In this document: positions 7,901 through 10,900 of the stretch, piece by piece
Numbering within the stretch: the first letter of the stretch is position 1
Layout: each line of letters starts with the position of its first letter
Source of the DNA: Candidatus Micrarchaeota archaeon
GTDB lineage: Archaea > Micrarchaeota > Micrarchaeia > Anstonellales > Bilamarchaeaceae
Direction: 5' to 3'
DNA length: 64,000 nt
NCBI GenBank assembly: GCA_040754495.1
Contig: JBFMCO010000022.1
Coordinates: 18,233 to 82,232 of the forward strand
The notes under the pieces: model-generated
What the model was told of the DNA's origin: nothing
The model's database searches: none
What the model saw: the letters and a program-made list of their open reading frames with translations, nothing else
Program-made: the position numbers and the translations under genes

Positions 7901-10900
7901 GACCCGTACAAGTATACGTACGGGTGGGCCAAGCAGCAGATGGAGAACGACCAGGACGTCAACCTTGGCAATCCGGCGAGGCCGGACTATGTGAAAGACC
8001 CCCAGCAGAGCTGGGCTTACTATAATTACAGCCCCATCACCGAGTACGGCGCCGACTTCATGGGCTACGAGGAGCTTGGAGGGCGGCTATGGAACTCGGT
8101 CCTTGAGGGAGATGGCAGGAAAGTCCAAAGATACCAGAAGCAGATGCTGGTGATGGAAGCCTCGGTTTTCTATATCCCGGTAGATACCTTCATAGACGGG
8201 ATAAACTCCAAGATTACATACAAGGACTGGCAAAAGAGGATACACTTCCAAGCCATGTATAACGGCGACCTCGCGTATGATGAGCTGTTTGGCGACTGGG
8301 GGCTCATGGACGCGAGGACCGGGGCCAAAATCGCAGAAGGCGTCGGGATGTTTGCGCTCTCCATCGCCACGATGGGCCTCGGGAGCGTTGGTTTCGTCGT
8401 GGGCGGGGGGAAGATGCTATGGGATGCCATAGACGGGATACAGAAGGACCTCGCCAAGTACGGCGAGGTAACCACCATGTCCTGGGTCAACCTCGGCCTC
8501 ACGGTCGTGGGACTCGGAGCGAGCGCAGCAGCAGGCAGGCTGGTGAAGGCGTCCCAGACGGCGATTGAAGCCGCAAAGCTTGGCGATGCTGCTAAATTCA
8601 CCACGCAGGTGGCGCGCGCCGGGAGGTTCGCGACCGCGGCGAGGGTCGTCGCCTACACCGATATAACCGTCAACGTAATCGGCATGGTGCCGCAGTTCTA
8701 TTACGGAATCAAGCTCATGGCGGAAGGGAAATACGCCGAAGGCACGCAACAGCTCGCTTTCGGCGCATTCTCGGCCTTCATGGCGTACCATGGCGGTGTG
8801 CAGCAGCTACGCGGCATGAGGGGCCTGAAGACGGAAATCGCGAAGATGGGGGCGCTGAGAGAGGCGCATGCCAAGGCCCCAGAGGTCTTTGCAAGCCTCT
8901 CTACTCCGGAGGGGATGTTCTCGTTCCTGCAGCGCGTCCGGGCGAGGGACCCGGTCTCGCTCGTCATCTATGACAACCTGCCGAAGCCCCAGCGCATACT
9001 TTTCGACGGGATGCTCGCTGACCGGAACGTCGTTTCCGCGCTCAAGAAAAACGATATCGGCTTGGCTAGGGGCGCCTTCGACAGCGGGCTCGAAACATTT
9101 AAGCAGCTATCCGACCTTGGCGGAACAAGGGCGCTCACGGACGCGGCGCATCTTGGCACGCAGGCCGGCCTCGAGCCGTTCATGAGAGACCTCCTGATAC
9201 CTGAAAGCGCGACCGGCCCGCAGCGCACGCGGAGGGACGCGGCGTATGCGAGGCTGGGGGAGATGAAGAAGCGGCCCGAGACCGCAGAGGCCGCGGCCAC
9301 CATAGAGACGCTGCTCAAGGACAAGGACGTGCAGAAAGGGAACGAAACAGGGGTTCTGAAGATAGGGTGGGCTGCCGACGAGATACGGAGCCAGCAGATG
9401 CAGACGATTAACAGATATACCGATTCAGTCGTGAGCGGCGAGCAGGCCCGCCTCGGATTATATTCGAGCGAAGGCGAAGCCGCGCGCGCGAACGCGAAAA
9501 GGATAGGGGATTCCTACCTTGCATATGCCAGGGCGAGGAGCGAGGGGAAGCCGTTCGACTGGGATTATCACGCAAAACGGATGGGCATGGGGCCGGAGGA
9601 TGCCAAAAAGCTGTTTGCGAAGCTGGATGCCGTGCCGGACGCGAGGACGGTAGCGGGAGTGATATCCAGGGAGGGCGTCCGCCAGGCAGTCCGGAATAGG
9701 GTGGCCCTTGACGGGCGCGCGATACTCGGGGACACGCCGCTTACCGAGCTCGCCGGCGAAGGGGCGCTGTTCTCAAGGTGGGGCGAACTCACCCCTGAAG
9801 ACCTTTTCGGCATGGCGCTAAACAGGAGGGAGAGGGCTGCAGAGGAACTCGAAGGGGCGGGCAGGGAAACGGATGGGAGGCTGGCCGCGGCAAAGAGGGA
9901 ACGGGCGACCGCCCTCTCGCGCGAGGCCGATGCCCTAGATGCAGAGGTAAAAAGGCGGCAGGCGCCCGAGGAGGTATTGACGCCCGATTCACTCCGCAGC
10001 GGCGCAAAGGAGAAGTTCGGGCGGGCCCAGCGCCTGCGCAGCGAGGGAAGGGACGAGGAGGCATTCGCGCTTGAGAGCGAAGCGAGGCGGAGCATAGCGC
10101 TCGCGGCAGACCTGGAGAAGTTCGGCGAATACGGCATCGTCCGTGCGACCCCGGACGGGCAGTTCATACACAGGGATTTCCCTGACAGGAGATTCACAAG
10201 GGCGGAGCTGGATGACGCTGCCATACTCGTGAGGGCCATCAGGAAGAGGGGCGTCCCGACCGACAAGCGCCTTCTGGCCATATACGACGCGCTGCCGAAA
10301 GAGGTCAAGAAGGATTACCGGGGCGGCGAGGACGCCCTGATGAAGTCCGTGCTCGATGTAATCTATTCACGGAGGGGGCAGGCGGCCGAGGCGGCGGCTC
10401 CGGTGCTCCGCTCCGAGGAGCTGCCGGTCCCCTCAGACCCGGCCCTTGCCGCAGTGGCCGGCATGACGGTGCCCGGGACGAACCTCAGGTGGGGAGTGAT
10501 ACCTCCGGACCAGGTGCTTCAGTGGCAGGCGAAGGTCTATGAGGCTTACAAGGCCGCGTACGGGAAAATCGGCCTCATCTACGACAGCCCGGAGGCGATG
10601 TTCGCGAAGAACCCAGAAGTCCTGGTCGCGACGGACGGCGAGGGGAGGATTGTCGCATTCACGATTCTGAAAAAGACCGCTTTCGGGACGAAGCTGTCCC
10701 TTGTCGGGGCGGTGCCTGACATCCCCGAGGGAAGGGCTGCCGCAAGGGCAATGATACAGGGCTTTCCAGCTCTCGAGGGTGCCTATATCACGGCACCGGG
10801 TGCTCCTGCGCATCTTGCAATCAAGGCCGGAGTGCCGGTCGTCCCTTACGATTCGGCAAGAATCATCCAGGGCGAGGTTCCGGCCGAGGCCGGAAGCCCG

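Follow-up and report, generated by a model that had tools for sequence, protein, structure and literature searches.

A conserved hydrophobic module, possibly membrane-inserting, within a giant cysteine-free protein of a Candidatus Micrarchaeota archaeon

Contig JBFMCO010000022.1 of a Candidatus Micrarchaeota archaeon (assembly GCA_040754495.1) encodes a protein of 6,841 amino acids (aa), referred to here as the giant, with a cluster of hydrophobic stretches deep in its interior. The cluster lies within the 64,000-nucleotide stretch of DNA analyzed here (positions 18,233 to 82,232 of the forward strand; the window). An earlier reading made from the letters alone (the sequence-only reading) had described four Gly-rich, transmembrane-like stretches flanked by long soluble regions in a protein lacking a signal peptide. 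The question raised by this locus is whether these stretches enter a membrane and, if so, on which side of it their flanks lie. With moderate confidence, the four stretches are interpreted as the giant's copy of a conserved membrane-insertion module of ~165 residues that keeps both flanks on one side.

The hydrophobic cluster and its relatives

The position of the cluster agreed with the sequence-only reading. Codon 2126 of the giant open reading frame (ORF) begins at window position 8321, and positions 8324-8809 encode aa 2127-2288. The cluster reads ...AKIAEGVGMFALSIATMGLGSVGFVVGGGKMLWDAIDGIQKDLAKYGEVTTMSWVNLGLTVVGLGASAAAGRLVKASQ...AARVVAYTDITVNVIGMVPQFYYGIKLMAEGKYAEGTQQLAFGAFSAFMAYHGGVQQLRG... 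and was divided into four segments, S1 to S4 (Table 1). The highest 19-residue Kyte-Doolittle (KD) window of the whole giant was found at aa 2133-2151 (1.78), and the window at aa 2178-2196 scored 1.33, relative to a protein mean of -0.41 (standard deviation 0.62). On a Hessa-type scale S1 and S2 were the two highest windows of the giant, with S2 ranking second.

Uncharged runs occurred at aa 2132-2155 (24 residues), 2175-2197 (23 residues), and 2266-2288 (23 residues). At least three uncharged runs of at least 20 residues within 170 aa were seen in only 0.2% of 2,000 shuffles of the giant (P~0.002). Gly made up 14.9% of the cluster, as against 10.2% of the giant as a whole, and accounted for 31% of S1, 17% of S2, 7% of S3, and 17% of S4. 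Hydrophobic moments, a check proposed in the sequence-only reading, were low (0.08-0.16); the cluster helices are therefore not amphipathic surface helices. A repeat or overlapping-ORF artefact was rejected as the origin of the cluster: the region held neither a tandem repeat nor an alternative ORF longer than 144 aa beneath it.

The first 40 aa of the giant were polar, and the earliest hydrophobic stretch (aa 43-61) included K and D. No hydrophobic h-region or signal peptide was found at the N-terminus. Because position 1946 is the first start codon following a stop, the ORF cannot extend upstream and the absence of a signal peptide stands. The top KD windows, the polar N-terminus, and the hydrophilic flanks of the cluster thus bear out an internal hydrophobic cluster with soluble flanks and no signal peptide.

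Using aa 1901-2500 as the query, an exhaustive phmmer search of 1.84 billion protein representatives returned 12 proteins of 644-3,081 aa (E 3.5e-16 to 8e-4; 27-32% identity). All 12 aligned across aa ~2035-2470 of the giant. Ranking the windows of each relative by hydrophobicity placed the top four within the module every time, even in proteins as long as ~3,000 aa. S1 was a 34-residue uncharged stretch in the relatives, with an invariant AFIP..G centre. It was followed in the alignment by an acidic loop (L1) carrying the motif E-Y-R-x-x-G-H-A-S-x-E-[AS]-W. S2 had a nearly invariant Trp at its edge and two invariant Gly residues at a spacing of seven, a small residue lying between the two. 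Next came a linker (L2), basic and rich in Ala and Arg, and then S3 and S4, the Phe at alignment position 176 (F176, in S4) being invariant. Altogether, the conserved residues within the segments were Gly, Trp, Phe, and Pro.

Loop charges were also kept across the 13 sequences: L1 was net acidic, L2 contained 3-6 K/R vs 0-2 D/E, and the region after S4 was basic in most. The module thus follows a positive-inside distribution of loop charge. The count of four segments rests mainly on the alignment, in which all four are clear. In the giant itself S1 and S2 were clear, S3 and S4 were weak, and S3 was not Gly-rich, so that the earlier description of four Gly-rich stretches holds in number across the family and in composition only in part.

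Only aa ~1146-2470 of the giant were common to the relatives, comprising a helical scaffold, the module, and a soluble tail. The first ~1,145 aa and everything beyond aa ~2,470 were lineage-specific. With the conserved scaffold on its N-terminal side and an array of enzyme-like regions, variable between lineages, on its C-terminal side, the module occupies a hinge position. No Cys was found among the 6,841 residues, where ~99 would be expected from the other ORFs of the window; Cys content of the relatives was 0-0.35% vs 1.4% in the other window ORFs.

Library searches placed the family outside known groups. None of the 13 members matched Pfam, including its Gly-zipper families, and sequence and profile searches of PDB with the family gave no match. 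A GTDB scan with the module recovered no relative, and a metagenome scan with a 7-sequence alignment recovered three loci of one clade. One relative (P0006) was an annotated protein of a Candidatus Micrarchaeota metagenome-assembled genome (MAG). Among four relatives' contigs (37-285 kb), two encoded ribosomal protein L31e, eIF-6, prefoldin, and FtsY, and two encoded an XPF/ERCC4-family nuclease. Overall, none of the libraries searched (Pfam, NCBIfam, PADLOC, PHROGs, PDB) describes the family. It is a rare family of giant, Cys-depleted, modular proteins without signal peptides, and its identifiable sources are all Micrarchaeota or another archaeon.

Two further observations were made on the relatives. 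An extra conserved hydrophobic segment lay ~1,000 residues after the module in P0003, P0005, P0007, P0010, P0011, and P0013 (aa 2335-2357 in P0007). Its approximate insertion free energy (dG) was +0.2 to ~+2.6 kcal/mol, and it had no counterpart in the giant. P0005 appeared to be split into two ORFs of locus L004, one of 398 aa (6818-8014) and one of 2,355 aa (8001-15068). Since both match contiguous parts of the giant scaffold, the split is probably a frameshift or an assembly error.

Membrane segments or soluble core

Hydrophobicity was scored with the Hessa/von Heijne dG predictor and the Wimley-White octanol sum, both approximate re-implementations calibrated on local controls. Membrane proteins of the window, including those of the VTT and DUF2085 families, had dG values of -4.4 to +1.4 kcal/mol, with only the weakest helices reaching +1.4, and Wimley-White sums of -4 to -16. 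Pfam-identified membrane proteins of related contigs ranged from -3.2 to -0.1 kcal/mol. The best single segments of soluble proteins ranged from +0.6 to +3.

Among the relatives, dG was -1.5 to +0.6 for S2, +0.5 to +1.1 for S1 in most (reaching +1.9), and +0.4 to +3.5 for S3 and S4. In full-length relatives S2 scored -1.46 to +0.56 kcal/mol, within the range of true transmembrane (TM) helices on related contigs. The four segments of the giant scored +1.1, +1.4, +3.7, and +3.8, with Wimley-White sums of -3.0, -1.9, -3.4, and -1.9, respectively. Elsewhere in the window, at least two nearby segments below +1.5 were found almost only in proteins that also had a helix of negative dG. Two of the proteins with such paired segments belong to Pfam membrane families (VTT and DUF2085), and the sole exception to the pairing was an uncharacterised ORF (28475-29209). 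The module occupies a twilight zone, exceeding soluble proteins in hydrophobicity and by far in clustering, yet falling short of ordinary co-translationally inserted helices. The giant's copy is the weakest of the family in hydrophobicity.

An AlphaFold2 (AF2) model of the module, built from the 13-sequence alignment, was all-alpha (mean pLDDT 73.6; pTM 0.42). Helices were predicted at giant aa 2127-2143, 2148-2172, 2177-2212, 2215-2259, and 2263-2317, and pLDDT was 70-90 from S2 on. The weak Foldseek matches of this model were to ExbB/TolQ, G protein-coupled receptors, designed helical bundles, ClyA, and phage tape measure proteins, all at E >= 0.07 with TM-scores of ~0.15-0.3.

Several of these results weigh against membrane insertion. 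Hydrophobicity was borderline on all three scales, with S3 and S4 at +3.7 to +3.8. No segment of the giant had a dG below 0 that could start Sec/SRP insertion (the best were +1.12 and +1.43); each membrane protein of the window owned at least one helix below 0, and some relatives reached -0.1 to -1.5. Soluble proteins of the window showed single segments at +0.6 to +1.3. The Wimley-White sums of -1.9 to -3.4 compare with -4 to -16 in real membrane proteins, and the approximate, non-trained nature of both scales counts on the same side. Structurally, Foldseek searches of PDB and BFVD returned no significant match, S1 was modelled at low pLDDT, and pTM was just 0.42. The 34 residues of S1, with their central Pro, could form a hairpin and thereby break a four-span topology. 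No secretion or insertion machinery was linked to the giant gene in the window or to its relatives at their loci.

The strongest rival, judged improbable though a serious contender, is that the four helices stay out of any membrane. They would then be buried at the centre of a soluble all-alpha domain or make up an oligomerisation bundle, and the giant would be a cytoplasmic scaffold. The approximate dG range of +1.1 to +3.8 overlaps the best segments of soluble controls, and the AF2 model is a bundle whose long helices run into amphipathic extensions. A cytoplasmic location would also suit the missing signal peptide, the lack of a linked secretion system, and the kinase-like, HD, and GNAT-like regions described below, which would require cytoplasmic cofactors. 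Opposed to this, uncharged runs of 20-34 residues make up about half of the ~165-residue stretch in all relatives, a proportion unusual for a soluble domain. The low moments indicate helices without a polar face, and conservation falls on Gly and Trp, not on large core-type residues. The loop charges alternate, and a soluble core would leave the family-wide Cys depletion unexplained. If the module is nevertheless a soluble core, the giant would be an orphan scaffold protein still notable for its size and its zero Cys.

A membrane-embedded four-helix bundle is preferred because four non-amphipathic, uncharged helices marked by Gly and Trp, together with an alternating loop charge, are conserved family-wide. 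As to the term transmembrane-like in the sequence-only reading, the family-wide pattern favours membrane insertion, while S3 and S4 of the giant are not TM-like and its hydrophobicity is marginal.

Variable cargo, partner gene and orientation of the module

Pfam searches over all 6,841 aa returned zero domains, including when the cutoff was relaxed to E <= 1 over the last 4,400 aa. Likewise, no secretion or trafficking domain or signal was recognised in the giant (signal peptide, Pfam, NCBIfam, PADLOC). By motif, the C-terminal region contained candidate enzyme domains. A ~520-aa repeat occurred three times, and all three copies carried [LV]FVK ... DR[HF]xxN ... IDxD in kinase-like order. The AF2 model of the repeat (3-sequence alignment) was of low confidence (pLDDT 51), and its top Foldseek matches (VPS34, mTOR, ATR, MerTK) were non-significant at E 0.4-1. 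Pfam and PDB profile searches with the repeat gave no match. The region at aa 2840-3088 looks GNAT-like by eye, a putative protein-kinase-like N-lobe lies between the first and second repeat copies, and an HExxH motif occurs near the C-terminus (Table 1).

The C-termini of the relatives differed. P0001 and P0008, of one clade, ended in HD/HD_5 phosphohydrolase domains (Pfam). Those of the other relatives were either the domain common to P0006 and the giant or unrelated sequence. Across the relatives, then, a conserved N-terminal part was followed by variable C-terminal enzyme-like domains. As a separate observation, an isolated aromatic hydrophobic stretch (IAPPPQAVPFGVFGIFMPLFKYFR; aa 5390-5413) stood between Pro-rich linkers. 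It was the most favourable Wimley-White window of the giant and may be an interfacial membrane-binding element.

A small gene precedes the giant gene, its stop codon overlapping the giant ATG. Homologues of this partner (~105 aa; 31-35% identity; E~1e-14) adjoined the giant gene directly upstream at loci L005, L007, L008, and L009 and were located two genes upstream at L004. No homologue was present at L003 and L006 or in the HD clade. The partner had no match in Pfam, NCBIfam, PADLOC, or PHROGs.

If the preferred reading is correct, the four glycine-zipper-type helices would pack against one another through faces lined with small residues, forming a compact bundle within the lipid bilayer. 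Transmembrane glycine zippers pack helices through GxxxG or small-xxx-small patterns; in the module, conserved Gly or small residues are spaced i, i+4, i+7 on S1b, S2, and S3, a resemblance at the level of the motif. Two short loops, the acidic E-Y-R-x-x-G-H-A-S-x-E-W loop and the S3-S4 loop, would face the far side of the membrane. The basic S2-S3 loop and both giant flanks would face the near (cytoplasmic) side, so that the scaffold and the kinase-like, GNAT-like, or HD cargo would be tethered to the membrane surface. The shared cytoplasmic face is suggested by the even number of spans, the basic charge of L2 and of the region after S4, and the 2,100 hydrophilic residues that precede the module. 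Insertion would likely be post-translational or conditional rather than by the ordinary co-translational Sec route, since hydrophobicity is marginal, the first 2,100 residues are made earlier, and a dedicated partner exists; the ~105-aa partner possibly assists.

The membrane entered could be the symbiont's own, with the giant as a contact-site anchor, or that of a host, with the giant acting like an effector. These were judged about equally probable, with the Cys depletion and the polymorphic C-termini tipping the balance slightly to the host membrane. Points for a host-directed role were the Cys depletion, the polymorphic cargo, the partner gene, and the DPANN lifestyle. Points for a resident anchor were the lack of a known export route and the positive-inside pattern.

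A bolder version of the host-directed role, which we consider unlikely, would make the giant an archaeal counterpart of self-translocating AB toxins, released or presented at the host contact site, with the module inserting into the host membrane. The ~105-aa partner would then keep the module soluble until insertion. The module would act either as a conduit for the cofactor-dependent C-terminal enzymes or as their anchor on the host cytoplasmic face. The putative cargo would comprise the three PI3K/PI4K-like kinases and the protein-kinase-like, GNAT-like, and HExxH domains. Large AB-type toxins (TcdA/TcdB; MARTX) are very large, lack a signal peptide, and place a marginally hydrophobic, Gly-rich helical region beside swappable enzymatic cargo. 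The giant resembles them in its size, in the missing signal peptide, and in its marginal Gly-rich helices beside enzyme-like cargo. Unlike them, it showed no sequence or fold similarity, no RTX/CROP repeats, and no recognised autoprotease or receptor-binding domain, and its organism is an archaeon. If true, it would give Archaea their first described device for passing effectors from cell to cell.

The sequence-only reading had also considered a protein spanning the membrane with very large domains on both sides. Such an arrangement is quite improbable; its spans would have to be odd in number, as would be the case if S1 formed a hairpin of two helices ahead of S2 to S4. Favouring it, S1 has 34 residues in the relatives with an invariant central Pro/Gly turn, the AF2 model splits S1 into two helices, and the Cys depletion would suit a large extracellular portion. 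Against it, export of the N-terminus would be difficult with no signal peptide and 2,100 hydrophilic residues coming first, the halves of S1 have just ~15-17 residues each, and the C-terminal domains resemble ATP- or cofactor-dependent enzymes. The even number of segments and the acidic/basic/neutral/basic order of loop charges fit flanks on the same face (N-in/C-in, four spans), and the two-sided arrangement was not supported.

A central open question about DPANN archaea is by what means they attach to their hosts, feed on them, or manipulate them. To our knowledge, molecular candidates for DPANN-host interaction are very few, with the SPEARE proteins as the main one. The SPEARE proteins of Nanohaloarchaeota are multi-domain proteins of 3,300-8,500 aa with an internal or near-terminal transmembrane region, and they have been proposed to work at the symbiont-host interface (Hamm et al., 2019; PMC6642349). 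Their domains include laminin-G and other adhesion domains, serine protease, BC-toxin-like, and type III restriction-enzyme domains, and they are predicted to lie largely outside the cell (PMC6642349). The giant is likewise a very large, multi-domain protein of a DPANN symbiont with an internal transmembrane-type region. It differs from SPEARE proteins in having no SPEARE domain detectable by Pfam, no sequence relation, and flanks that would lie on one side.

In the polymorphic toxin or polyvalent architecture (the concept of Zhang, Iyer, and Aravind), a conserved N-terminal part precedes lineage-variable C-terminal enzymatic domains. The variable C-termini, the small conserved adjacent gene, and the small paralogues beside the giant locus (described below) are similar to this arrangement. 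The locus differs in that no PAAR, LXG, RHS, MuF, or toxin/immunity family was detected and in that the paralogues are on the opposite strand and not conserved. Phage tape measure proteins (e.g., T5 Pb2) are long and alpha-helical, and hydrophobic, Gly-rich helices in their interior enter the membrane of a target. The giant differs from them in its non-significant fold matches (E >= 0.07, TM-score ~0.15), in the absence of a tail-gene context, and in having no Pfam match. The resemblance to SPEARE proteins, AB toxins, polymorphic toxins, and tape measure proteins is architectural only.

The locus defines a second family of giant DPANN proteins, unrelated to SPEARE. Four features characterize it: a conserved membrane-type module, swappable enzyme-like cargo, extreme Cys avoidance, and a dedicated small partner. 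The family is a testable candidate for a contact-site anchor or a host-directed effector in Micrarchaeota. At 6,841 aa, the giant would be placed among the largest archaeal proteins.

Chromosomal context and other features of the locus

The window is part of an archaeal chromosome (Micrarchaeota, DPANN). Its genes included the PolD large subunit DP2, CysRS, a PurN-like formyltransferase, an AlaX-like protein, RpiA, GMP synthase, and an Lrp/AsnC regulator. The CysRS shared 67-70% identity with its counterpart in a Candidatus Bilamarchaeum MAG (Micrarchaeia, order Anstonellales). The GC content of the giant gene was similar to the remainder of the window, and its GC at third codon positions (GC3) was 0.79.

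An origin of the giant in a virus or mobile element integrated beside tRNA-Gly, whether as a tape-measure-like, an ejection, or a polyvalent protein, is very improbable. In its favour are the nearby tRNA-Gly(CCC), a marginal PHROGs tape-measure match far from the module (phrog_14917; aa 240-361; E 1e-3), and the weak, non-significant BFVD matches that include tape measure proteins. These are outweighed by the absence of any phage or plasmid match by tblastn, of any IMG/VR relative, and of integrase, capsid, or tail genes around the giant gene, by the flanking housekeeping genes, by the matching GC content, and by relatives on contigs of 160-285 kb whose neighbours are genes for ribosomal protein, eIF-6, prefoldin, and FtsY. 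A provirus or mobile-element origin was rejected on the absent phage, plasmid, and IMG/VR relatives and the housekeeping context. The kinship to tape measure proteins or translocated effectors raised in the sequence-only reading found no significant match in PHROGs, BFVD, phages, or plasmids.

Table 1. Positions of the segments, regions, and neighbouring features of the giant gene in the window.
Feature	Window position	Strand	Remarks
tRNA-Gly(CCC)	461-540		1.4 kb upstream of giant gene
Orphan ORF, 322 aa	577-1545	+	HETLH (HExxH) motif; upstream of partner gene
Partner gene, 109 aa	1617-1946	+	Predicted helical
Giant ORF, 6,841 aa	1946-22471	+	Uninterrupted; no Pfam or NCBIfam family
Lineage-specific N-terminal region, 1,145 aa	1946-5380		Weak internal repeats
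Conserved alpha-helical scaffold, aa ~1146-2035	5381-8050	+	Common to all full-length relatives; BLASTP 24-32% identity over 560-1,400 aa, E 1e-29 to 1e-91
Segment S1, aa 2127-2159	8324-8422	+	Top KD window of protein; approximate dG +1.12
Segment S2, aa 2175-2200	8468-8545	+	Trp at N-terminal edge, G-x3-small-x2-G; KD 1.33; approximate dG +1.43
Segment S3, aa 2230-2257	8633-8716	+	Weakly hydrophobic here (R and D inside); approximate dG +3.73; Wimley-White sum -3.4
Segment S4, aa 2266-2288	8741-8809	+	Uncharged but Q-/H-rich here; invariant Phe; approximate dG +3.78
Conserved soluble helical region after module, aa 2289-2470	8810-9355	+	In all phmmer matches; AF2 pLDDT 80-93 over most
Variable-region domain, aa 2840-3088	10463-11209	+	Shared only with P0006; BLASTP 31% identity over 252 aa, E 3e-28; no Pfam match
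Kinase-like repeat copy 1, aa 3330-3851	11933-13498	+	LFVK...DRFDRN...PIDMD; 34% identity to copy 3
Protein-kinase-like N-lobe (putative), aa 4017-4103	13994-14254	+	G-loop LGRGSSADVY, VAVK at aa 4043; PADLOC PD-T4-6 E 5.6e-4; Pfam negative
Kinase-like repeat copy 2, approximately aa 4480-5010	15383-16975	+	VFVK...DRHAGN...GIDTD
Aromatic hydrophobic stretch, aa 5390-5413	18113-18184		Between Pro-rich linkers
Kinase-like repeat copy 3, aa 5491-6020	18416-20005	+	VFVK...DRHTGN...PIDPD
HEMQH (HExxH) motif near giant C-terminus	21149-21163	+	Motif only; no family match
Orphan paralogues, ~180 aa	22490-23032, 23029-23577, 24133-24663	-	20-36% identity
PolD DP2 gene	31778-36658	-	Interrupted by intein

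In two relatives' loci, L004 (2114-23068) and L005 (3220-24406), the giant gene was part of an island beside FtsY. The order of the island was the same in both: an orphan gene of 1,253 or 1,403 aa, the small partner, the giant, a GDSL-lipase protein of 806 or 834 aa, and a protein of >1,500 aa with a hydrophobic segment at its N-terminus. The large orphan neighbours at L004 and L005 were also Cys-poor.

The lineage-specific N-terminal 1,145 aa of the giant had no relatives anywhere in the searches made. Weak internal repeats were present in this region, pairing aa 164-301 with aa 785-923 and aa 485-590 with aa 584-688. Homology of the upstream 322-aa HETLH protein to the HEMQH region of the giant was rejected by pairwise comparison; the motif alone is common.

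Three paralogous orphan ORFs of ~180 aa were located just downstream of the giant gene. They had no match in Pfam, NCBIfam, PADLOC, or PHROGs and did not turn up at the loci of the relatives; to assign them an immunity-like function would be pure speculation.

The coding strand of the giant gene showed a uniform and strong purine excess over positions 2001-22000 (GC skew +0.09 to +0.20; AT skew +0.12 to +0.28), which was absent in the remaining window. The intein that interrupts the PolD DP2 gene contained a LAGLIDADG homing-endonuclease domain and coincided with a local dip of GC content to 0.51 at 32-34 kb.

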